A stretch of DNA of 46,204 bases from a virus (lineage: Duplodnaviria > Heunggongvirae > Uroviricota > Caudoviricetes), in IMG/VR virus record IMGVR_UViG_2541047747_000001; one strand, given 5' to 3'. The translations under genes and the position numbers were made by a program. The notes beneath the pieces are model-generated. The model had not been told where the DNA came from and did no database searches. It worked only from the letters and a program-made list of their open reading frames with translations. Positions 8,486 through 30,378 of this stretch are shown here, one piece after another (positions within the stretch are counted from its first letter, which is position 1; the number at the start of each line of letters is the position of its first letter).

Positions 8486-9069
8486 TGGCATTCAGAATGA
8501 GTGAACAAGCACGGACCATAAAAATTTATAATCTGCTGGCCGGAACTAATGAATTTATTGGTGAAGGTGACGCATATATTCCGCCTCATACAGGTCTGCC
8601 AGCAAACAGTACCGATATTGCACCACCAGATATTCCTGCTGGCTTTGTGGCTGTTTTCAACAGTGATGAGGCATCGTGGCATCTCGTTGAAGACCATCGG
8701 GGTAAAACGGTTTATGACGTAGCGTCAGGGGACGAGTTATTTATTTCTGAACTCGGTCCGTTACCGGAAAATGTTACCTGGTTATCGCCGGAAGGGGAGT
8801 TTCAGAAGTGGAACGGCACAGCCTGGGTGAAGGATACGGAAGCAGAAAAACTGTTCCGGATCCGGGAGGCGGAAGAAACAAAAAACAGCCTGATGCAGGT
8901 AGCCAGCGAGCATATTGCGCCGCTTCAGGATGCTGCAGATCTGGAAATTGCAACAGAGGAAGAAATCTCGTTGCTGGAAGCATGGAAAAAGTATCGGGTA
9001 TTGCTGAACCGTGTTGATACGTCAACTGCACCTGATATTGAGTGGCCTACGAACCCTGTCAGGGAGTAA
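8485..9069 (+). CDS. tfa: tail fibre assembly protein Tfa
   Basis: 194 aa, [42 protein letters not shown] nearly identical to lambda Tfa as recalled; start overlaps stf stop (TAATG). Confidence 0.9.
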
Positions 9070-15343: not shown

Positions 15344-15709
15344 TTATTGCGCTAATTCTTTTTCGGCAGCAGCTTTTGTATACTCACATGCAAAACTCAG
15401 AATTTCGCTGCCGAGTGTTTTCGTTTCGTGATTACTGGACATATGTAATACCTGTGTTGCATGCAATAAATGATAAACATTTACCGCAAATGAATCAGGC
15501 TCCAGACAAATGCCTTCGTAATTATCTTGCTGTGAGGTTGTTTCTGTCATTGCTCCTGAAGTGCATGCGAGCCTGTTTTTGACAATTCTCTTTTCTCTAA
15601 TCACTATATCGGCAACATCTATTGCCTTTACAACCTCCGGGAGAAGTTCCGGGTTTGTATAATCAAAGTCATCAACATGGAGAACAGTTATGTTTTCGAA
15701 CTTTTTCAT
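15344..15709 (-). CDS. hypothetical protein
   Basis: 121-aa ORF co-oriented with the early-left genes. Confidence 0.5.
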   Translation of the reverse strand: MKKFENITVLHVDDFDYTNPELLPEVVKAIDVADIVIREKRIVKNRLACTSGAMTETTSQQDNYEGICLEPDSFAVNVYHLLHATQVLHMSSNHETKTLGSEILSFACEYTKAAAEKELAQ

Positions 15710-15837: not shown

Positions 15838-16341
15838 TCACCATTGGTATTGGTTCTTCCGCAGAAGAGCTTCGCGAGATAAGGGGCAAACTTGTTGAGA
15901 TGCGTCATGGTGTTGCTGCTCCTCACTTTTTGGTTGCTCCGGAGGAGTAACCTCACCAGTTAACAGCCACATCGGATCGCAGCCAAGAATATTTGCCAGT
16001 GGGATAAGCATACTGATAGTTGGTTCATACTCTCCGCTCTCCCACTGGATGATAATTTCTTCATCGAGATCGAGCAGCCTGGCGAGTTCGGCGGTTGTTA
16101 AGCCGCAGGCTTCGCGTTGGGTGCGAAGACGGTTGTTGATTGCAGAATTTTTGTTCTGTAAAAGCATTGCTGACGATAGCTTTCTGGATATGCTATTTGT
16201 CATATCCCATGCCAGTCCTGCGCATGACTCTATATCGCTAGAGAGCGTAGCATCAGGTGTTGCTTTTGCTATTAGTGTAATGAGGCTGCCGAGGTTTTTC
16301 AGTTCTTCGAGACAGTCAAGAGTTGTAGCTTTATTGATCAT
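15838..16341 (-). CDS. XRE-family helix-turn-helix protein (first gene leftward of the cI-left operator region)
   Basis: 167 aa; central HTH LRTQREACGLTTAELARLLDLDEEIIIQWESGEY; preceded by operator-like repeats at 16347-16420. Confidence 0.6.
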   Translation of the reverse strand: MINKATTLDCLEELKNLGSLITLIAKATPDATLSSDIESCAGLAWDMTNSISRKLSSAMLLQNKNSAINNRLRTQREACGLTTAELARLLDLDEEIIIQWESGEYEPTISMLIPLANILGCDPMWLLTGEVTPPEQPKSEEQQHHDASQQVCPLSREALLRKNQYQW

Positions 16342-16346
16342 GAGAT

Positions 16347-16420
16347 GATACCTCAGTTACGAACTTTGTTTTATGGTAACTAAGGTATCAAGGTGTGGCA
16401 AGTGATTTTTGATACTTTGG
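16347..16420. promoter_or_regulatory. left operator-like repeat cluster (OL analogue)
   Basis: GATACCTCAGTTAC (16347-16360) and its inverted partner GGTAACTAAGGTATC (16375-16389), plus the 12-mer TTGATACTTTGG (16409-16420) that recurs to the right of cI. Confidence 0.5.
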
Positions 16421-16444
16421 TTTCTTTTTGTGTTTTGTGTCTGG

Positions 16445-17101
16445 TCAGAAAATATCCCACCTGGCATCAACCACAACACCTACTATTTCGCAATCATTGT
16501 CCATTTCTATGATTGGATATTGTGGATTAAGGGGCTTTAGAAACGCCTTTCCCATGTCAGAAATATATTTTTTGAATGTTGCTTCATTGGTAGATTTTTT
16601 TCTGGCGATGACGTAACACCCTGAAAAAACTTCTTTATCTGGGTTGACAAGGATCGACATTCCTTCAGGAAATGTTATTCCTACGGGCGAAGTCATTGAG
16701 TCTCCGTGCACTTCCAGCCAGAACCCCCTCTCACCAGCGTATTTTACAGAATGCCTCCAATTATCCTGATCATACATGTTGTAGTCATCACCAGAAGTTG
16801 CGAATAATCCTGCCTGAACCCAGTTAATTACAGGGTAAGAGTGTGCTGTGTCTCTCTGTGGGCAGCTCTTAACATTATTTTCCCAATGCTTATCTTTTTC
16901 ATCTCCGTTCTGAAGCCACTGCGGTGAACACCGCAGTGCAGCTGCAACTTTAAAAAGGGTGTCACCGTTGAAACTTTTTGTAAGGCCTTGCTCGGCTTTA
17001 CTGATTGCAACTCTGGTGATCCCAGCTTTTTTAGCCAACGCATCTTGTGTTAACCCAGCTTTTTGCCGTGCGTTGATGAGACGTTCACCTAAAGACTTCA
17101 T
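16445..17101 (-). CDS. cI: cI-type prophage repressor (HTH plus LexA-like S24 autopeptidase domain)
   Basis: N-terminal HTH MKSLGERLINARQKAGLTQDALAKKAGIT and C-terminal S24 domain with GDSM serine motif; GGAG RBS before the ATG at 17101; the ORF-track extension to 17176 is rejected. Confidence 0.85.
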   Translation of the reverse strand: MKSLGERLINARQKAGLTQDALAKKAGITRVAISKAEQGLTKSFNGDTLFKVAAALRCSPQWLQNGDEKDKHWENNVKSCPQRDTAHSYPVINWVQAGLFATSGDDYNMYDQDNWRHSVKYAGERGFWLEVHGDSMTSPVGITFPEGMSILVNPDKEVFSGCYVIARKKSTNEATFKKYISDMGKAFLKPLNPQYPIIEMDNDCEIVGVVVDARWDIF

Positions 17102-17123
17102 TTTTCTTCTCCTCTCATGGCTG

Positions 17124-17195
17124 TTGATACTAAAGTAACAGAATTTCTTGATACTTTGGATTCCTGTGGTTAACATCGTTGGATAACAAAGTATC
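17124..17195. promoter_or_regulatory. right operator-like repeat cluster (OR analogue) with candidate rightward promoter
   Basis: TTGATACTAAAGTAAC (17124-17139), TTGATACTTTGG (17148-17159), GGATAACAAAGTATC (17181-17195); -35 TTGATA, 17-bp spacer, -10 TAACAT at 17171-17176. Confidence 0.5.
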
Positions 17196-17492
17196 TGGTG
17201 TGAGACTAAAGAATGACCCTTTATGAAATATTAAAAATTCAATTTAAAACCAATGCCGCTATTGGTCGCAGGTTCCCAAAGAAAGGAAGGCCTCGTGGCA
17301 GTCAAGGTGTTGGAAAGTGGAAAACGCGAGGTGTTCCGGAGGATGTTGCCATTCTTTGTCATTTGGATCCGAGCATTCCATATACACACCCAAGCCTAGC
17401 GCACACGGAAGATGGGAAGTGATGGTGGTGATATGAGCGAAAAAATAACTATTAAATACGATGGGACAACCATTTCGATTGCCCCGATCACA

Positions 17493-17786
17493 TTAGCGTT
17501 CGCTGAGAAGTTGTTGGTAAGCCTTAAAGGATGCGAACTGCATTCTACCTTCGGCATTGATTCCAATGCCTTCGCTTGTACACCAAGCGATGAACTCGGC
17601 TGTATCCGCTTCAACTTTAATAACTCGTTGCCCGCCTCTTTCGACACGCTTAATCAATTTTTCAGCGTCGTGTTTCCACTCGGTGTAACTGTCGGAGAGC
17701 ACATCAGCATCAGTAAAAATATTTTTGAGCTCATGATACTGAATCGCATCGCGAAACCAGAATAAACCAACGGCCTGAACTTTCAT
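17493..17786 (-). CDS. hypothetical protein upstream of and co-oriented with cI
   Basis: 97-aa ORF with a strong RBS (AAAGGAGG, 6-nt spacer); no recognisable motif. Confidence 0.6.
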   Translation of the reverse strand: MKVQAVGLFWFRDAIQYHELKNIFTDADVLSDSYTEWKHDAEKLIKRVERGGQRVIKVEADTAEFIAWCTSEGIGINAEGRMQFASFKAYQQLLSER

Positions 17787-17899
17787 GTCGAACCTCCTTT
17801 GGTTCTTTTGTTTATAGGGATCAAAAGGATAACTGAAGGAAGGTTCGGCACCAATAAGTACGAATGTGCGGAATCTTAAAAGAATTTATCCGTAAGGAG

Positions 17900-18613
17900 A
17901 TGGCAGTGAACACCGTAATTTTTAACGGCAAAGCATCCATGACCAGCCTTGAAATCGCAGAGTTGGTGGGCAGCCAACACAAAGATGTTAAGCGCAGCAT
18001 TGAAAGGCTCATGGATAAGGGGATTATTCGAAGTGCGCCAATGGCGAATTTCGAAATAATCAACAACTTAGGATTAAAACGAAATGTAGGTGCTTACATC
18101 TTCGAAGGCGAACAAGGTAAGCGCGACAGCATCATTGTCGTCGCACAGCTCTGTCCTGAATTCACAGCTCGCCTGGTAGATCGCTGGCGCGAACTGGAAG
18201 AACAGATCCGTAAGCCAATGAGCGAAATCGAAATGGTTGCCGCGATGGCTCTTGAAGCCGTTCGCCAACAGAAACGGATCACTCAGGTGGAAGAAAAAGT
18301 CAGCCACGTTGCTGAAACAGTCGAGCAAATTAAAAAGGGCACTATTCGTGAGGGCTATGCCGGATATCGCCAACTGAAAGCAAAAACCGGTTTGTCAGAT
18401 GATAAATGCCGCAATCTGGTGAACGCCTATCAAATTCCTACAGACACACATGAGTTCATGACGCCGGACGGATTGTTGTCACGTCGCGCAATTGTTGCTG
18501 TGGAACCGTTTATGGCTGCTTTTTATCGGGTTATGGAGGAAGCAGAACCGCGAGGGACTCGCTGGTATCACCCGAAAATGGGGTTATTTCAGGTTATTGG
18601 TTGGCAGCGATGA
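17900..18613 (+). CDS. Rha-family phage regulatory protein (antirepressor-like)
   Basis: Start at MAVNTVIF after an AAGGAG RBS; N-terminal Rha-like domain (FNGKASMTSLEIAELVGSQHKDVKRSIERL). Confidence 0.7.
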   Translation: MAVNTVIFNGKASMTSLEIAELVGSQHKDVKRSIERLMDKGIIRSAPMANFEIINNLGLKRNVGAYIFEGEQGKRDSIIVVAQLCPEFTARLVDRWRELEEQIRKPMSEIEMVAAMALEAVRQQKRITQVEEKVSHVAETVEQIKKGTIREGYAGYRQLKAKTGLSDDKCRNLVNAYQIPTDTHEFMTPDGLLSRRAIVAVEPFMAAFYRVMEEAEPRGTRWYHPKMGLFQVIGWQR

Positions 18614-18720: not shown

Positions 18721-19383
18721 ATGATCATTTCAAGACCAAATATTGATTCTGCAATTTCGGGACGTTACACTGTCTCCGCACCTTATAAAGCGGGTGCCGG
18801 GGGTCGCAGCCCGGAATTGCATACGGCGATATACGACGCGCCAGCGTCTTTTTTATCGTCCGCGCTCACGCACGCCAGAATTATGGTGGGCTGGGCAGGG
18901 GAGCCGAAAGGCTCGCCGGTTTCCGTATGCGCCGGTACTGCGAACCCTGTTCAGTCTGCCACCAGTGAGTTTCGCAGCTCCGGTGGTGGAAGTTATCCAT
19001 TGCATACGGAGGCTGCCATCATGGCTACAGTCCCAACTTCCCCATTCCTCAAAATTGAAGTTGTCAACGGCAAGGCCGTTATTTTCTCCCTGCATGTTGC
19101 CTGCCACTTTAAGCGCATGCACCAGAACATCGTCGACAAAATCGAGTATCTGAACTGCTCACGCGAGTTTTTTACCCGCAATTTCATACCGGGTACTTAT
19201 CACATCTACGGTGACTCCCTGCGTGGTTATTACATCACCCTTGATGGTCTGATGATGCTTCAGCTTGGGTTAAGTCTGCGCACAATGCGGTACTACGAGA
19301 GCTGTATTGAAGCATTCCATGAGGCTGAAACCGTCCAGGGTCACTCCGCGTTCCGTCGTAATCAACGGGAGGTGCACCTATGA
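18721..19383 (+). CDS. Rha-family protein with about 100-aa N-terminal extension (or structured leader plus Rha gene starting near 19021)
   Basis: Rha-like core FLKIEVVNGKAVIFSLHVACHFKRMHQNIVDKIEYL; N-terminal region contains a conserved 61-nt block and an in-frame terminator-like hairpin (18835-18854). Confidence 0.6.
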   Translation: MIISRPNIDSAISGRYTVSAPYKAGAGGRSPELHTAIYDAPASFLSSALTHARIMVGWAGEPKGSPVSVCAGTANPVQSATSEFRSSGGGSYPLHTEAAIMATVPTSPFLKIEVVNGKAVIFSLHVACHFKRMHQNIVDKIEYLNCSREFFTRNFIPGTYHIYGDSLRGYYITLDGLMMLQLGLSLRTMRYYESCIEAFHEAETVQGHSAFRRNQREVHL

Positions 19384-20231
19384 TCCGCCACCAGCATATT
19401 GATTCTGCAATTTCGGGACGTTACACTGTCTCTGCACCTTATAAAGCGGGTGCCGGGCGTGGAAACCCGAAATTCAATATAGAGCACAACCGCGCTCATG
19501 CGGTTTTTTCGTGTCATGAGCATCGTTACGCCCAAATTATGGTGGGGCGTGCAGGGCCAACTTCGGTTGGGCCGGGTTCTATGTTGACCGGTATTTCCAC
19601 CCCTGTACGTCTCACCACCTATATGGTCGTGGAAAGCCTTGGTGGTGAGTTCATTGAATTCAACATAGGGGCTGTCACCATGACTACTCTCCCAACCCAA
19701 TCTCACCCTGAAATCACGATTATCAATGGTCGCGTTGTCACCACATCTCTTGCAGTAGCTAATTACTTTACTAAACGGCATGAGCGGGTTTTAGATAGAA
19801 TTAGAAACCTCGAATGTTCCGCTGAATTTACTGAACACAATTTTGTGTTAAGTGAATACACCGACGCATCAGGCCGCAAACTACCTTGCTATCAAATCAC
19901 CCGCGATGGCTTCGCGTTCCTTGCCATGGGCTTCACTGGTAAACGTGCTGCCCGGTTCAAAGAGGCATACATCAACGCCTTTAACCTGATGGAGAAGAGT
20001 TTATCAGGTGCCGATACGTCTGATATGTCAGCTGTCGCACGAAACGCCAGAGGCGTATACCTGCATTTGCGTGAAATCCATCAAATCTGGACAAGCCAGC
20101 TTTATCCAATGCTTAAGGCCGTTGAATCTCCGCTGGCTAGCAAACTGTACGACCGTGTTGGTGATGCTGTTTTTGGCGCTGCACTTGTTGATTCCAGGCT
20201 GAATGGTTCTGACAAGGAGGTTCGCCCATGA
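19380..20231 (+). CDS. Rha-family protein, paralogue of 18721..19383, same N-terminal extension architecture
   Basis: Rha-like core ITIINGRVVTTSLAVANYFTKRHERVLDRIRNL...QITRDGFAFLAMGFTGKRAARFKEAYINAFN; ATG overlaps the upstream stop. Confidence 0.65.
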   Translation: MIRHQHIDSAISGRYTVSAPYKAGAGRGNPKFNIEHNRAHAVFSCHEHRYAQIMVGRAGPTSVGPGSMLTGISTPVRLTTYMVVESLGGEFIEFNIGAVTMTTLPTQSHPEITIINGRVVTTSLAVANYFTKRHERVLDRIRNLECSAEFTEHNFVLSEYTDASGRKLPCYQITRDGFAFLAMGFTGKRAARFKEAYINAFNLMEKSLSGADTSDMSAVARNARGVYLHLREIHQIWTSQLYPMLKAVESPLASKLYDRVGDAVFGAALVDSRLNGSDKEVRP

Positions 20232-24558: not shown

Positions 24559-25599
24559 GTGAACATTCAGGCAGTAGACATTTTTTGTGGTGCGGGGGGC
24601 TTAACTTTTGGGCTAAAAAAAGCCGGGATTGAGGTTTCTCATGGTATTGATATTGATGAATCCTGCCGTTTTGCTATTGAGAGCAATAATCCTTTAACGC
24701 AGTTCATTAATCAGTCAGTTACAGAACTGCAATCCTGCGATGTGTCTGCTATGTTCAAGGAAGGAAATATTAGATTGCTTGCTGGATGTGCTCCTTGCCA
24801 ACCGTTTTCCAAGTATCGTAATCCAAATAGCCGTAAAGACGATACAAAGTGGCGTTTGTTATATGAGTTTCAAAGGCTTGTAAGTGATGTAATGCCAGAG
24901 CTTGTGACGATGGAGAATGTTCCTCAACTTAGAAACCATAAGGTTTTTGAAGGGTTTGTTAGTGCATTAAAGACTCTTGGATATCATTTGTGGTACGACG
25001 TTGTAAGATGTTCTGAGTATGGCTTACCTCAAAATAGACGTAGATTAATTCTAATTGGTTCCCAATTGGGGCCGATCAGCCTTGATCAAAAAAAAGTTAG
25101 CCGTAAAGTTACTGTTAAGGATGCTATTGGTAGGTTGCCAAAAGTAGGGGCAGGTGAGAAGCTGGAAAGCGATCCCTTGCATCGTTCGCCTAAATTGATG
25201 GATATCAATCTTAAACGAATCATGCATTCTTTACCTGGTGGTACGTGGGATGACTGGCCTGAAGAAATTAGAGCAGACTGTCATAAAAAGAATTCAGGTG
25301 CTACCTATAAAAGCGTTTATGGACGGATGGTTTGGGACGATACTAGCCCTACGATAACTACCCAGTGTTATGGATATGGAAATGGACGATTTGGCCATCC
25401 TGAGCAAAATCGCGCCATAACTTTGCGTGAAGCTGCGATTTTGCAATCCTTTCCAATGGATTATAAATTCCTTGACAAGGAGACGCCTTTTTCATTCCAA
25501 AAATTGGGGACAATGATTGGAAATGCTGTTCCCCCTATAATTGGTCAGATAATAGGGGAAACATTTATCAGACATGTTGAGGGGATAAATACCCGTTAG
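24559..25599 (+). CDS. DNA (cytosine-5)-methyltransferase
   Basis: Motif I FCGAGG, motif IV PCQPFS, ENV and QNRRR motifs; GTG start with GGAG RBS. Confidence 0.85.
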   Translation: MNIQAVDIFCGAGGLTFGLKKAGIEVSHGIDIDESCRFAIESNNPLTQFINQSVTELQSCDVSAMFKEGNIRLLAGCAPCQPFSKYRNPNSRKDDTKWRLLYEFQRLVSDVMPELVTMENVPQLRNHKVFEGFVSALKTLGYHLWYDVVRCSEYGLPQNRRRLILIGSQLGPISLDQKKVSRKVTVKDAIGRLPKVGAGEKLESDPLHRSPKLMDINLKRIMHSLPGGTWDDWPEEIRADCHKKNSGATYKSVYGRMVWDDTSPTITTQCYGYGNGRFGHPEQNRAITLREAAILQSFPMDYKFLDKETPFSFQKLGTMIGNAVPPIIGQIIGETFIRHVEGINTR

Positions 25600-26257
25600 A
25601 GGTAATATAATTTTCTGTTGAGTTGATTAATAAACGCAAATATAGATCAATTCTTTCTGACCTCGATTTGACTTCTTCTAAAGGGTCTATTTGACCTTTT
25701 TTAGAAAAGCTGGTACTTCCATGTGCCAGCTCATTTCTGATATCTTTAAGTAAATCTAAGTCAACACCATTTCTACACTCTGGTGAGTTTGCAACAGTTA
25801 TTCCGTAAGCTTGTGTTATTTTGTGCAATACAGACTTGCAAACATTACCATTGAATTCTTTACGTATGTTTAATGAGGCTGAAATGATCCTTTTAGATAT
25901 ATCGGAACCAATTTTTTGATAAAGAGATTTTCCCGATTCATTATCTGAAATGATACGGTGCAAGATATTTACTTGGAATTTCTCCCTGAGTGATGCGTAA
26001 TTTACTTCATTATCTTGCAAATGGTCATAAATTGACTCAATGCATCCTCTGGCAGTGTTTTCAACCTGATTGTACAGCATCATGTGCACGGATGATTTTA
26101 AAATGTTAACCCTAAGGGTATTTGATTCTATTTCATCTTTATGCGTTTGCTGATCTAACTGCTGAGTCTGAGCCTCTAAAGATGACGCAAGAGAAAGCAA
26201 TTCCATAATATCTCTTGCTCTTTCTTCGTATTCATCTCTTAAATCAATCAAACTCAT
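25568..26257 (-). CDS. HEPN-domain protein (putative RNase effector), second gene of DUF262-HEPN cassette
   Basis: 229 aa; C-terminal R-x4-H motif RNELAHG; start 2 bp after the DUF262 gene stop; 3' end overlaps the convergent C5-methyltransferase by 32 bp. Confidence 0.65.
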   Translation of the reverse strand: MSLIDLRDEYEERARDIMELLSLASSLEAQTQQLDQQTHKDEIESNTLRVNILKSSVHMMLYNQVENTARGCIESIYDHLQDNEVNYASLREKFQVNILHRIISDNESGKSLYQKIGSDISKRIISASLNIRKEFNGNVCKSVLHKITQAYGITVANSPECRNGVDLDLLKDIRNELAHGSTSFSKKGQIDPLEEVKSRSERIDLYLRLLINSTENYITSNGYLSPQHV

Positions 26258-26259
26258 AG

Positions 26260-27417
26260 TTACATTCCTAATAATTTATCTTTGACATAAAATATTCTGT
26301 TTTTGAGTTGGCTGGTGTTGTTGGCACTATCAGCAGTAACTATGGTTTCAAATTCCTCCCCAAACAGCCAGTCTCCTACAGGAATAACCGGAGCCTGTAG
26401 ATGTGGATTGGCTTTTAAGGCAAGAGCAGTTCCCACTGCTATGGCTTCGTATCTAGCACGGGGGGTGGTTTTGCTTGTTGGTGTCTTTTTAAACCCCATA
26501 GGGAAATGAGCATCTACAAAAGCAAGCATGCTTTCAAAATCATGTTTAAATTTGTCTACATCTTGTTGTGTGACCCTTTCGGCCTGAACATTAAGATAAT
26601 TGTCAATAAAAGGAGCGACATAACCCTTATAATTTTCTAAATCATTTAAGTATGCAAAAAATCTCAAAACTAACTCACGATGATCGCCATTCGAACGTTT
26701 CCGATCTGATAATGGAGCTAGACTAGCGAAAAGTGGATTTGTTGAGCAAGGAGTCACAACATCCCTATAGAAAATTGAAGTGGCCGCATCTGAACCATGT
26801 CTAACCTCCATCGCTTCCAGTCTCTTAACACCTGAATTTATTCTTTCGAATAAATCTCTTCTATGCTGCTCCTCAACATCACCTTTCAATTCAATAAATC
26901 TTAGTGATGCCCTTAAAAATCGCCTCTGGCGGCTAGCCAAAAGATCTGAAAATTTGAAGCCCTCTAAACTTTTGAGTTCTTTTAAGTCTTTCAATTCAAA
27001 CTGATTGTTCCAAAAGTAGTAAATTGAGCGAATCCTTTGTGAACCGTCAATAATTTCTACACGACCATCCAACTCAGGATCTTCATTAAATACGTCGGAG
27101 ATGTAGAGGTACGGGATTGGAAAATCTAATAATATACTTTCGATGAATCGAGAGGCTGTTTTGATATCCCATTTGTAATCGCGTTGATAATCAGGAATAA
27201 AAAGTTCGTTTTTGTCAGTTTCAAGATTATTGCCATACTTTTGTACAATTAATTCAACGGTCCATTCACGTACGTTGTATCCAATATTTCTCTGAGCAAG
27301 CCTAATCTCGTTGTCGGCAGAAGTGACCAAGGCTGCAATTTCAGCTTTTTTTCTATTTTTCGCGTTTTCATCTTGAATCTGAGCAAGCTCTTCTTTGAGT
27401 TCTTTGAGTGTGGTCAT
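26260..27417 (-). CDS. DUF262 (ParB-like nuclease/NTPase fold) domain protein
   Basis: 385 aa; signature blocks FIPDYQRDYKWD and IIDGSQR; AAGGAA RBS before the start. Confidence 0.7.
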   Translation of the reverse strand: MTTLKELKEELAQIQDENAKNRKKAEIAALVTSADNEIRLAQRNIGYNVREWTVELIVQKYGNNLETDKNELFIPDYQRDYKWDIKTASRFIESILLDFPIPYLYISDVFNEDPELDGRVEIIDGSQRIRSIYYFWNNQFELKDLKELKSLEGFKFSDLLASRQRRFLRASLRFIELKGDVEEQHRRDLFERINSGVKRLEAMEVRHGSDAATSIFYRDVVTPCSTNPLFASLAPLSDRKRSNGDHRELVLRFFAYLNDLENYKGYVAPFIDNYLNVQAERVTQQDVDKFKHDFESMLAFVDAHFPMGFKKTPTSKTTPRARYEAIAVGTALALKANPHLQAPVIPVGDWLFGEEFETIVTADSANNTSQLKNRIFYVKDKLLGM

Positions 27418-27527
27418 ATCACTGTTCCTTTAATTGGAGTTGGAAATAGATTGTAAGAAAACTATAACGCGTACGCAAAAAATATTATATCGTGTTAAGA
27501 GTGGTTACTACGCCACACAGCTTAAAC

Positions 27528-28018: not shown

Positions 28019-29068
28019 ATGCTTAATACTGTAAAAATATCCAGTTGTGAGTTAATCAACGCCGACTGCCTGGAATTTATCCGGTCGTTACCCGAAAATT
28101 CTGTTGACCTGATAGTCACGGACCCGCCGTACTTTAAAGTGAAGCCTGAGGGCTGGGATAACCAGTGGAAGGGCGACGATGATTACCTGAAGTGGCTGGA
28201 CCAGTGTCTGGCGCAGTTCTGGCGGGTGCTGAAACCTGCCGGAAGTCTTTACCTGTTCTGTGGTCATCGCCTGGCATCTGATATCGAAATCATGATGCGT
28301 GAACGCTTCAGTGTGCTGAACCATATTATCTGGGCGAAGCCGTCCGGACGCTGGAACGGATGCAACAAGGAAAGCCTGCGGGCGTATTTCCCCGCCACAG
28401 AGCGCATTCTGTTCGCGGAACATTATCAGGGGCCGTATCGTCCGAAAGATGCCGGGTATGCGGCGAAGGGCAGTGCACTGAAACAGCATGTGATGGCCCC
28501 GCTGATTTCTTACTTTCGTGATGCGCGCGCGGCCCTGGGGATAACGGCAAAACAGATTGCAGATGTCACAGGAAAGAAAAACATGGTGTCGCACTGGTTC
28601 AGTGCCAGTCAGTGGCAGCTACCGAACGAAAGCGATTATCTGAAATTACAGTCGCTGTTTGCCCGGGTGGCAGAAGAGAAACATCAGCGCGGTGAACTGG
28701 AAAAGCCCCACCACCAGCTGGTGGATACGTATACGTCACTGAACCGGCAGTATGTGGAGCTGCAGAGTGAATATAAGCATCTGCGGCGGTATTTTGGTGT
28801 GACGGCGCAGGTGCCGTACACGGATGTATGGACACATAAACCGGTGCAGTTCTATCCCGGGAAACATCCGTGCGAAAAACCGGCAGAAATGCTGCAGCAG
28901 ATAATCAGCGCAAGCAGTCGTCCGGGTGACCTGGTTGCAGATTTTTTTATGGGCTCAGGTTCAACGGTAAAAGCGGCACTGGCGCTCGGGCGTCGTGCGA
29001 TTGGCGTTGAACTGGAGACCGGACGTTTTGAGCAGACAGTCAGGGAAGTTCAGGATTTAATCGTTTGA
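28019..29068 (+). CDS. DNA N6-adenine methyltransferase (DPPY motif)
   Basis: 349 aa; motif IV LIVTDPPY and SAM-binding region FFMGSGST. Confidence 0.8.
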   Translation: MLNTVKISSCELINADCLEFIRSLPENSVDLIVTDPPYFKVKPEGWDNQWKGDDDYLKWLDQCLAQFWRVLKPAGSLYLFCGHRLASDIEIMMRERFSVLNHIIWAKPSGRWNGCNKESLRAYFPATERILFAEHYQGPYRPKDAGYAAKGSALKQHVMAPLISYFRDARAALGITAKQIADVTGKKNMVSHWFSASQWQLPNESDYLKLQSLFARVAEEKHQRGELEKPHHQLVDTYTSLNRQYVELQSEYKHLRRYFGVTAQVPYTDVWTHKPVQFYPGKHPCEKPAEMLQQIISASSRPGDLVADFFMGSGSTVKAALALGRRAIGVELETGRFEQTVREVQDLIV

Positions 29069-29117
29069 AACGGATGAGATTGCAGAATTAATTACGCACC
29101 ATTATTATTCTGCTCCC

Positions 29118-29193
29118 GGCCCTTTAGCTCAGTGGTGAGAGCGAGCGACTCATAATCGCCAGGTCGCTGGTTCAAATCCAGCAAGGGCCACCA
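29118..29193 (+). tRNA. tRNA with CAT anticodon (Ile2/lysidine type, ileX-like, or Met)
   Basis: Manual fold: 7-bp acceptor stem GGCCCTT/AAGGGCC, D-stem GCTC/GAGC, anticodon loop CTCATAA, T-loop TTCAAAT, encoded CCA. Confidence 0.85.
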
Positions 29194-29200
29194 TCACATA

Positions 29201-29277
29201 CCGCCATTAGCTCATCAGGAAAGAGCGCCAGCCTTCGAAGCTGGTTGCGCGGAGTTCGGGTCCCCGAAGGCGGTCCA
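29201..29277 (+). tRNA. tRNA-Arg (anticodon TCG)
   Basis: Manual fold: anticodon stem CCAGC/GCTGG, loop CTTCGAA, encoded CCA; one mismatch each in acceptor and T stems. Confidence 0.65.
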
Positions 29278-29290
29278 TTATCTGTATCCT

Positions 29291-29367
29291 GCGTTGTTAG
29301 CTCAGCCGGACAGAGCAATTGCCTTCTAAGCAATCGGTCACTGGTTCGAATCCAGTACAACGCGCCA
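29291..29367 (+). tRNA. tRNA-Arg (anticodon TCT)
   Basis: Manual fold: perfect acceptor stem GCGTTGT/ACAACGC, anticodon loop CTTCTAA, T-loop TTCGAAT, encoded CCA. Confidence 0.85.
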
Positions 29368-29382
29368 CACTTATTTTCCCTG

Positions 29383-29407
29383 GCTCGCTTTTGCGGGCTT
29401 TTTTTTA
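29383..29407 (+). terminator. rho-independent terminator after the tRNA cluster
   Basis: GCTCGC-tttt-GCGGGC followed by a T8 run. Confidence 0.6.
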
Positions 29408-29606
29408 AATGTCTCACAATTCAGGCGGTTGACTGTTGTCTGGTTTGCGGGGAGTTTGTTAAAAGAAACTGGCATGGTGAATCCCCCTGTGCGGAGGGGC
29501 AATCAGCGAGTAGGTATATGGGATAATCGCGGATTCAGGTGCTGGTACTGAATTCACCGGGAGGCACCCGGCACCATGCAGTTGACTGAAACCATGTATA
29601 CTCTCA

Positions 29607-29636
29607 GGCCCCACGCACATGTGTTGGGGCCTTTTT
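29607..29636 (+). terminator. rho-independent terminator upstream of the lysis genes
   Basis: GGCCCCA...TGGGGCC stem followed by TTTTT; an oppositely oriented hairpin with A8 follows at about 29641-29670. Confidence 0.55.
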
Positions 29637-29807
29637 ACATGCAAAAAAAAGCCCGCATATGGATACGGGCGGCAAGGAACAAAAAACGTGAAGTGATCTA
29701 TTCAGCCAGTGGATAATACCCTGACGTTACCATATTGCGCAATCGCGCATTCTTTCTTTTTCGCTCCCCTTATAACTACGCCATCCGTTCGCTGCGGAGG
29801 TGAGGCT

Positions 29808-30023
29808 ATGAAATCCATGGATAAAATTTCAACGGGCATTGCCTACGGCACCTCCGCAGGCAGTGCTGGCTACTGGTTTTTACAGTGGCTTGATCAGGTC
29901 AGTCCGTCACAGTGGGCTGCGATTGGTGTACTGGGGAGTCTGGTTCTGGGCTTCCTGACATATCTGACTAACCTGTATTTCAAAATCAGAGAGGACCGTC
30001 GTAAGGCTGCGCGGGGAGAGTAA
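29808..30023 (+). CDS. S: class II holin/antiholin with dual start (phage 21 S-like pinholin)
   Basis: 71 aa [28 protein letters not shown]... matches S21 as recalled; M1-K-S-M4 dual start; GGAGG RBS. Confidence 0.85.
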
Positions 30024-30027
30024 TTCA

Positions 30028-30378
30028 ATGATTCAAAACTATGAACTGATTGTGAAAGGGATCCGCAATTTTGAGAATAAAGTTACGGTAACTTTAGCGT
30101 TACGGGACAAAAAACGCTTTGACGGTGAAATTTTTGACCTGGACATCTCGCTGGACCGTGTTGAAGGTGCCGCGCTGGGGTTTTATGAGGCAGCAGCCAG
30201 AAGGAGCATCAGACAGGTCTTCCTGGATGTTGCTGCCGGGTTATGTGAAGGGGATGAGCAGTCGCCGGAAAAGCGCCCCGTAATTTTAGAGGCGCAGAAT
30301 GTGTGGATAACCTACAAAGGAAAGCTACCAGGAAGAATTACTGGTTCTCTGAAGACTCCTCCGGAATCACAACCTTAA
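30028..30378 (+). CDS. hypothetical protein between holin and endolysin
   Basis: 116-aa ORF starting 5 bp after the holin stop; no recognisable motif. Confidence 0.5.
   Translation: MIQNYELIVKGIRNFENKVTVTLALRDKKRFDGEIFDLDISLDRVEGAALGFYEAAARRSIRQVFLDVAAGLCEGDEQSPEKRPVILEAQNVWITYKGKLPGRITGSLKTPPESQP

Follow-up and report, generated by a model that had tools for sequence, protein, structure and literature searches.

The interval 16,342–17,899 of the virus record IMGVR_UViG_2541047747_000001 (46,204 nucleotides (nt); hereafter the window, whose numbering is used throughout) is, with high probability, the immunity (lysis–lysogeny) switch of a phiP27-type lambdoid prophage with an optional accessory cassette inserted just downstream of cro. 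The first-pass annotation had presented it as an atypical immunity region with no recognisable cro, and we arrived at a different view on both points. The region has the tripartite lambdoid layout of the phiP27 type; as a switch, it is ordinary and typical of a known immunity type. The 69-amino-acid (aa) open reading frame (ORF) to the right of cI is the Cro, as indicated by its position, its fold, a weak transitive link to the YdaS/P22_Cro families and an earlier typing as Cro12. This reading is built on sequence anatomy, conservation, a predicted fold and the presence or absence of the cassette among relatives.

Prophage and immunity type

The window is a segment of the Escherichia coli chromosome in which a lambdoid prophage occupies the yecE site. 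Over positions 17100–18000, it is 100% identical to E. coli strain FAH and to several further human isolates. In RefSeq, the FAH prophage reads integrase, excisionase, early-left genes, a helix-turn-helix (HTH) protein, a "LexA family protein" and two "hypothetical proteins", followed by Rha-family genes, replication genes, Q, lysis genes and head genes. The Stx2e (Shiga toxin type 2e) phage phiP27 showed 95% nucleotide identity to positions 16300–17419, which cover the end of the HTH gene, cI, the right operator region and most of cro. Several Stx1a and Stx2a phages were 87% identical over the same stretch. In these Stx-phage relatives, the corresponding genes are annotated as repressor CI and a hypothetical protein. 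The homology with phiP27 stops at about 17419 and resumes at the ribosome-binding site (RBS) of the first Rha gene (phiP27 L14). The phiP27 immunity region (L10–L14) was reportedly treated by Recktenwald and Schmidt in 2002. A literature search with the RefSeq and GenBank accessions of the 69-aa protein, the 97-aa protein encoded downstream of it and cI found no papers.

Operators and promoters on both sides of cI

Six 14-bp pseudo-palindromes flank cI, three in the left (OL) and three in the right (OR) operator region, and they form the meaningful repeat signal of the interval. The operator-like sites of OL (16347–16424) are L1 (GATACCTCAGTTAC, 16347–16360), L2 (GTAACTAAGGTATC, 16376–16389) and L3 (GATACTTTGGTTTC, 16411–16424). 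Those of OR (17126–17195) are R1 (GATACTAAAGTAAC, 17126–17139), R2 (GATACTTTGGATTC, 17150–17163) and R3 (GATAACAAAGTATC, 17182–17195), with centre-to-centre spacings of 24 and 32 bp. Oriented by the better half, the sites read TGATAC-N4-(GTAAC, GATTC, TTATC, GTTAC, GTTAC or GTTTC). Each consists of one strong and one weak half-site, as lambda operators do.

The first-pass annotation had drawn attention to the 12-mer TTGATACTTTGG, which indeed occurs exactly twice in the window, once on each side of cI (16409–16420 and 17148–17159). We rejected this pair as stand-alone evidence, because the count is no higher than chance: by our own arithmetic, chance alone should give dozens of 12-mer pairs in 46 kb, and the 12-mer with two or fewer mismatches gave six matches in the window against 3.9 expected. 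The wider proposal, that the repeats are analogues of OL and OR, fared better, as the six sites appear to be one family, clustered in two intergenic regions and conserved in relatives. The pattern GATACNNNNGWWWC gave five matches in the window, all of them in the OL and OR intergenic regions, against an expectation of 0.46; none of 100 shuffled sequences reached five. Since this pattern was derived after the sites had been seen, the independent support comes from the clustering of the sites and their conservation in relatives.

The conservation follows the half-sites. Among six E. coli relatives (87–99% identical), the half-sites and the promoter hexamers are kept and the intervening bases vary. 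L1 and L2 are invariant in these relatives and L3 nearly so, with differing flanking bases. In a Stx2a phage, R3 is the perfect palindrome GATAC-TTAA-GTATC. Klebsiella and Photorhabdus prophages, whose homologues of the 69-aa protein are 67–70% identical, have the same three OR sites at the same 24/32-bp spacing, and the same −35/−10 arrangement. The repressor helix-turn-helix VTRVAISKAE(Q/L)GLTK is also kept in these two genera. In Providencia, the HTH region of the repressor reads VSRVTISKIELGDSQ and the half-sites are GAAAC/GAAAG. The operators and the repressor HTH thus seem to change together, as cognate pairs would, which is suggestive in this single lineage.

A consensus scan yielded a candidate PR on the plus strand (17148–17176), in which TTGATA (17148–17153) and TAACAT (17171–17176) are separated by 17 nt. 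The 69-aa ORF lies downstream of it, as the first-pass annotation had noted. R2 overlaps the −35 hexamer, and R3 spans about +1 to +12. The hexamers are conserved and the spacer is variable among the six E. coli relatives; equivalent arrangements (TTGATA/TTGAAA-17-TACTAT/TAGATT/TATGAT) occur in three other genera. The scan also gave a candidate PL on the minus strand (16373–16401), formed by TTGCCA (16401–16396), 17 nt and TACCAT (16378–16373), whose function is presumed. Here, L2 overlaps the −10 hexamer and the spacer, L1 lies just past the start site, and both hexamers are invariant in relatives. R1 and L3 each lie about 51 bp upstream of the predicted starts of PR and PL, respectively. A tentative PRM would occupy the minus strand at 17127–17154, with GTATCA (17154–17149), 16 nt and TAGTAT (17132–17127); it was read directly from the sequence, and the consensus scan did not flag it. 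It overlaps R2 and R1, and the same arrangement is visible in Klebsiella and Photorhabdus. Each side of cI therefore carries three imperfect palindromes that overlap divergent early promoters and are conserved relative to their spacers. This is the classic tripartite lambdoid arrangement, and the conservation suggests that the repeats are genuine operators.

The cI repressor

The 218-aa cI repressor is encoded on the minus strand (16445–17101), falls into phrog_4 ('transcriptional repressor') and is 97.7% identical to phiP27 L11. Its N-terminal HTH_3 domain covers residues 10–63 (Pfam, expect value (E) 1.7e-14), and the C-terminal match to Peptidase_S24 (E 3.2e-22) spans the full Pfam model. 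Inspection of the sequence located Ala97-Gly98, Ser135 (in GDSM) and Lys177/178. The protein thus combines an HTH domain with an S24 domain that has the Ala-Gly site and the Ser/Lys dyad, as in repressors of the LexA/lambda-cI type. On these features, cI is a predicted SOS-cleavable HTH + S24 repressor.

The 69-aa protein as a divergent Cro

The cro gene lies on the plus strand at 17213–17422 and encodes a divergent, all-alpha Cro of 69 aa. Its family, phrog_4749, is a PHROG without known function. Without exception, the gene heads the rightward operon in E. coli, Klebsiella, Providencia and Photorhabdus, about 105–115 nt from the divergent HTH + S24 repressor. A small gene thus opens the PR operon and points away from the repressor across OR. 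Relatives differ mainly at third codon positions (for example, 3, 4 and 25 substitutions at the three positions), a sign of purifying selection.

An AlphaFold model based on an alignment with 35 homologues reached a mean predicted local distance difference test (pLDDT) of 91. It is all-alpha, with helices at residues 3–11, 14–20, 30–39, 43–51 and 60–68. The three best structural neighbours were solved Cro proteins, those of N15, Xfaso-1 and P22, and the model shares their all-alpha HTH fold. Among viral predicted structures (BFVD), the top named matches were YdaS proteins with template modelling (TM) scores of 0.62–0.65. Searching the profile of the 69-aa family against PDB sequences returned chance-level matches only. 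The same profile was aligned by hhalign with the cro-slot protein of a Thiomonas prophage (81% probability, E 1.2e-5), which itself matches Pfam YdaS_toxin (PF15943) below threshold; the resulting link to YdaS/P22_Cro is weak and transitive. The 69-aa protein itself matched neither the P22_Cro (PF14549) nor the YdaS (PF15943) profile, and we therefore filed it as a Cro by fold and position, outside both families. A basic nine-residue loop, FPKKGRPRG, joins helix 2 to the presumed recognition helix, and Pro22, Gly25 and Arg28 are invariant. This loop replaces the tight HTH turn, which is probably why the profiles miss the protein.

Heteroimmune E. coli prophages carry a Pfam-positive YdaS/P22_Cro gene in the equivalent slot, beside the same 97-aa cassette. 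The last 33 nt of cro (plus strand, 17390–17422) form a mosaic junction, being 100% identical to the 3' end of the YdaS-type cro of these prophages. Smith et al. (2012) typed phiP27 cro (L12) as "Cro12", with degenerate primers whose translations, MTLYEI and GKQSEV, correspond to both ends of phiP27 L12 (PMC3430580). Profile searches in Pfam, NCBIfam and PADLOC left both the 69-aa and the 97-aa protein without a significant match. The first-pass reading would fall only if a conventional cro were present and the repressor did not bind the repeats; a cro was found, though by fold, position and literature, and the conservation of the repeats points to genuine operators. On these three grounds, the 69-aa ORF is a divergent Cro.

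The 97-aa gene and its cassette

The slot between cro and the first Rha gene holds a 97-aa gene on the minus strand (17493–17786), whose strong RBS (AAGGAGG, 6 nt ahead of the ATG) had already been recognised in the first-pass annotation. It belongs to an uncharacterised family (phrog_4753; RefSeq WP_000867909.1). The right boundary of the slot is a Rha/antirepressor-like gene on the plus strand (17900–18613; Pfam Phage_pRha, E 3.4e-8; phrog_63 'anti-repressor Ant'). Between genera, substitutions in the 97-aa gene are distributed as 18, 8 and 54 over the three codon positions, and the proteins are 75–80% identical. Judged by this pattern, it is a real coding gene under selection.

The gene is part of a cassette of about 400 bp (about 17460–17860), which consists of a promoter-like block, the RBS, the gene and a 3' hairpin. 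The promoter-like motif lies on the minus strand (17826–17854), with TTGGTG (17854–17849) and TATCCT (17831–17826) separated by 17 nt. The block, TTGGTG-17-TATCCT or GATACT, is kept in four genera despite different neighbouring genes. Scanning with GATACNNNNGWWWC found no cI operator near it. The 3' hairpin (minus strand, 17463–17485) is terminator-like with an imperfect U tract. Its folding energy is −16.9 kcal/mol on the minus-strand RNA (z-score −4.6) as compared with −7.0 kcal/mol on the plus strand, and it is maintained through G-C/G-U changes in Klebsiella, Salmonella, Pectobacterium and a second E. coli variant.

The distribution of the cassette separates it from the switch. In prophages with the identical cI protein (WP_000838344.1), cro abuts Rha, with no reverse-strand gene between them. 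Heteroimmune E. coli prophages encode the identical 97-aa protein next to a cro of the YdaS type and another repressor; in other relatives, the slot is filled by forward-strand genes. Genes that adjoin in some sister phages are thus separated by the cassette in others, as expected of a moron, a concept that is said to stem from Juhala et al. in 2000. The first-pass annotation had offered the gene as an accessory gene or a novel regulator. The accessory part stood, in that the repressor strand indeed carries an unassigned gene of accessory character here. The regulatory part did not extend to the core: because prophages with identical cI do without it, the 97-aa gene, although real, appears optional, dispensable for the switch and no part of its core. 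The cassette fits a self-contained moron-like unit, and our best guess is that the gene would be expressed from the prophage and confer an accessory benefit such as exclusion, defence or an effect on host physiology. In phiP27, the slot contains L13 (4655–5326 in the numbering of the phiP27 sequence, minus strand, 223 aa), which has no Pfam or PHROG match and shows one hydrophobic, membrane-like segment upon reading of its translation. The cro-to-Rha slot may be a hotspot for reverse-strand accessory genes. A published moron site at PR' (Tree et al. 2014, PMC4104026) is distinct from this slot.

We examined the 97-aa gene in prophages of E. coli (two immunity types), Klebsiella, Salmonella, Pectobacterium and Thiomonas and in a metagenomic prophage. 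In every context it shares its strand with the repressor gene and converges on a cro-type gene (of phrog_35 or another DNA-binding PHROG); it lies between cro and replication or antirepressor genes. It is directly beside cro in all of them except Thiomonas, where one small gene intervenes. This conserved convergent placement may damp rightward read-through.

An exhaustive profile search collected 1127 cluster representatives (clusters at 50% identity) at E ≤ 1e-3. Most are stand-alone proteins of about 100 aa, with a few tandem fusions, and W10, D26, W37, G52, W68-C69 and R81 are near-invariant. Neither Pfam, NCBIfam nor PADLOC gave a significant match for the 97-aa protein, the only trace being Phd at E 0.055, below the cutoff; the same three resources matched none of 116 diverse family members, and Pfam returned nothing for ten longer or fused members. 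With PADLOC silent on the protein and on all 116 members, the family does not fall among known anti-phage defence or toxin–antitoxin systems. Its profile found no relative among PDB sequences, only chance-level matches. The AlphaFold2 model was poor (pLDDT 59), because it was built on a shallow alignment of 14 sequences, before the deep family had been found; its fold search was uninformative. Some members occupy non-phage chromosomal neighbourhoods beside redox-related genes.

Two further features lie around the start of the gene. A 15-nt inverted repeat (17786–17800 with 17836–17850) brackets the RBS and start codon of the 97-aa gene and the promoter-like spacer, and is conserved in four genera. 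Its consensus fold is −23 kcal/mol on the PR-strand RNA versus −14 kcal/mol on the sense RNA, with little covariation. A plus-strand hairpin at 17790–17805 was considered as a tR1-like terminator; this is unlikely, as it is not conserved in other genera.

Alternative readings

Several observations weigh against an ordinary switch with an optional cassette. The 69-aa protein found nothing in Pfam (E ≤ 1) or NCBIfam (E ≤ 0.1), the alignment under its model is shallow (effective number of sequences about 2), and the hhalign and Foldseek statistics behind the Cro assignment are modest. The promoters and operators are consensus-level predictions. In the cassette, the −35 of the predicted promoter is weak and the U tract of the hairpin is imperfect; the cassette may therefore not be autonomous, and read-through into cro antisense and cI is conceivable. 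The cassette stays convergent to cro across beta- and gammaproteobacterial prophages at only 28–35% protein identity. Such positional conservation is beyond that expected of a random moron and hints at a link to the switch. The family members outside phages argue against a purely phage-specific role of the protein. In one alternative, the 97-aa protein is itself part of the lysis–lysogeny decision. It would stabilise or antagonise Cro, cI or the antirepressors, or its unit would act like lambda PRE, by leftward transcription that starts beyond cro and runs antisense through cro towards cI. We consider this unlikely. In its favour are the orientation of the gene, on the strand of the repressor and towards a cro-type gene, which is kept in heteroimmune switches and distant hosts alike, the conceivable read-through past the hairpin and the fact that phiP27-type phages have no identifiable cII, cIII or N (PMC3430580). 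It conflicts with the prophages that have identical cI and near-identical cro and lack the gene, and with the unrelated slot genes of other relatives. The solitary members in non-phage chromosomal neighbourhoods are also hard to reconcile with it; profile searches detected no DNA-binding or protease-related motif in the protein or its family, and no cI operator lies near its promoter. Somewhat more doubtful is the broader proposition of a new, widespread protein family (more than 1000 clusters at 50% identity, without a Pfam, NCBIfam or PADLOC entry) that temperate phages of beta- and gammaproteobacteria have repeatedly set on the repressor strand, facing cro, on account of a part in the decision, either as a protein acting on Cro, cI or the antirepressors or through PRE-like transcription against PR. 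In that case, the protein would be a missing functional counterpart of cII/cIII in phiP27-type phages.

It is improbable that the 69-aa ORF is not a functional Cro, with Cro-like control absent or supplied by another HTH protein (e.g., the 167-aa protein described below) and the switch truly atypical. The lack of any Pfam or NCBIfam HTH match, a PHROG of unknown function, the nine-residue loop in place of a canonical turn between helices 2 and 3 and the gene for another clear HTH_3 protein directly to the left of OL would all agree with this. It is difficult to square with three solved Cro proteins as top structural neighbours, with the cro position of the gene in four genera and with Pfam-positive YdaS/P22_Cro genes in the same slot by the same downstream cassette. 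Moreover, residues 19–24 of the 69-aa protein differ in the Providencia lineage, whose operator half-sites differ too, and the literature already types the phiP27 homologue as Cro12 (PMC3430580). Least probable of all, and by our estimate very improbable, is a second protein, of 110 aa, encoded by the PR strand (17433–17765) opposite the 97-aa gene, which would make the slot an overlapping gene pair. No stop interrupts its frame along the full length of the 97-aa gene in E. coli, Klebsiella, Salmonella and Pectobacterium. The frame starts just after cro in all four (here 11 nt past the stop) with ATG or GTG behind a Shine-Dalgarno-like sequence, and a gene caller annotated it in Pectobacterium. 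However, only TTA, CTA and TCA codons give antisense stops in this register, so a gene poor in Leu and Ser is fairly often open by chance. The substitutions favour the third position of the 97-aa frame, the antisense peptides are 41–52% identical as compared with 75–80% for the sense proteins, and the conserved N-terminal stretch coincides with the RNA hairpin. We therefore set this ORF aside as a probable register artefact with a poorly conserved peptide, and retained the phiP27-type switch with an optional cassette.

Proposed working of the switch

For the phiP27-type switch we propose the following model, in which DNA binding, promoter activity and expression in the lysogen are what we infer from the anatomy. 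Dimers of cI would bind the six 14-bp GATAC-N4-GTATC pseudo-palindromes. In the lysogen, dimers on R2/R3 and on L1/L2 would block PR and PL, and R1, which lies over the likely −10 of PRM, would permit autoregulation of PRM. SOS-induced self-cleavage of cI would release PR. Transcription from PR would then yield the 69-aa Cro, which presumably occupies the same operators and lowers cI synthesis. The same transcription would cross the 97-aa cassette in antisense orientation before it reached the Rha/antirepressor and replication genes. The 97-aa unit probably has a transcript of its own, made from the prophage strand, and would supply an accessory function.

Neighbouring genes and other features

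The first gene of the PL operon encodes a 167-aa HTH_3 protein on the minus strand (15838–16341; Pfam HTH_3, E 3.8e-11; phrog_4739; a HTH protein in RefSeq). It also matches phrog_4836, 'CII-like regulator' (E 1.3e-40). Since no N, cII or cIII has been identified in phiP27 and phages of its type (PMC3430580), this protein may be a second regulator of the switch. It is followed by a conserved 121-aa gene of no assigned role (15344–15709, minus strand).

Downstream of the first Rha gene, an isrK-like RNA with a C4 antisense RNA behind it occurs in two tandem copies on the plus strand (18778–18966 and 19434–19622), all above the Rfam gathering scores. They are upstream of, or within, 'ash family protein' ORFs and a third Rha gene. 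Conceptual translation of these RNA genes probably accounts for the repeated 'IDSAISGRYTVSAPYKAGAG' N-termini of the ash and third-Rha ORFs. As a whole, this looks like a duplicated P1 immI-like (c4-icd-ant) or Gifsy isrK antirepressor control module.

Further away, a HEPN-like nuclease (MAE_28990/MAE_18760 family) and a DUF262 protein are encoded on the minus strand at about 25570–27419 (coordinates deduced from 28470–30319 of a RefSeq-annotated locus). They sit between two DNA methyltransferase genes downstream of Q, which looks like a defence island within the prophage. Three tRNA genes (Ile, Arg and Arg in RefSeq; 29118–29364, plus strand) are followed by a match to the small RNA STnc100 (29443–29642, plus strand, 139 bits). 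Such a stretch ahead of the lysis genes is usual for the PR' region in lambdoid and Stx-type prophages. A full-length IS009 RNA match (8828–9026, plus strand, 220 bits) lies in the host yecN–yecE region, just outside the prophage attachment site.

Significance and comparison with known systems

The switch adds one more well-delimited lambdoid immunity type, with the operator consensus GATAC-N4-GTATC, and this should help in annotating its carriers, approximately 200 E. coli genomes in the collection and the relatives among Stx phages. Its Cro family is unseen by Pfam and NCBIfam and labelled "hypothetical" everywhere. Structurally, the long basic loop that stands where the HTH turn would be is a minor variation open to experimental check. 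The family of the 97-aa protein is large and uncharacterised, with a strikingly constant position next to cro in heteroimmune prophages. The gene is a cheap, well-defined target for deletion or overexpression in work on prophage accessory genes or switch modifiers.

The 69-aa protein is only 10–17% identical to the Cro proteins of P22 (1rzs), N15 (2hin) and Xfaso-1 (3bd1). It occupies the same genomic slot as the YdaS/P22_Cro families without their Pfam match, and shares an 'x-W-x-x-R/K-G-(V/I)-P' segment with YdaS-like proteins. Where canonical HTH proteins have a tight turn, the loop of the 69-aa protein is basic, conserved and nine residues long. The cassette is similar to rexAB/sieB-type morons in being small, with its own promoter-like element, RBS and hairpin, in lying between genes that are adjacent in sister prophages and in being common to heteroimmune phages. 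It differs from them in its position, to the right of cro and convergent with PR, not beside cI, and in a product without similarity to known exclusion or defence proteins (PADLOC).

As in lambda and P22, an S24-type, predictably SOS-cleavable repressor stands between two tripartite operator regions that overlap the early promoters, and a small divergent first gene has a Cro fold. Unlike in lambda and P22, the operators are 14 bp long (GATAC-N4-GTATC) and spaced by 24 and 32 bp, the first leftward gene encodes a HTH protein and not N, cI has a conventional leader and RBS, no rexAB-like genes follow cI, and there is no cII to the right of cro. The closest system is that of phiP27. The C-terminal tail of its Cro is unlike that of the window, and its cro-to-Rha/Ant slot holds the unrelated reverse-strand L13 in place of the 97-aa gene. 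The yecE integration site, the operators and the promoters are the same in both prophages.

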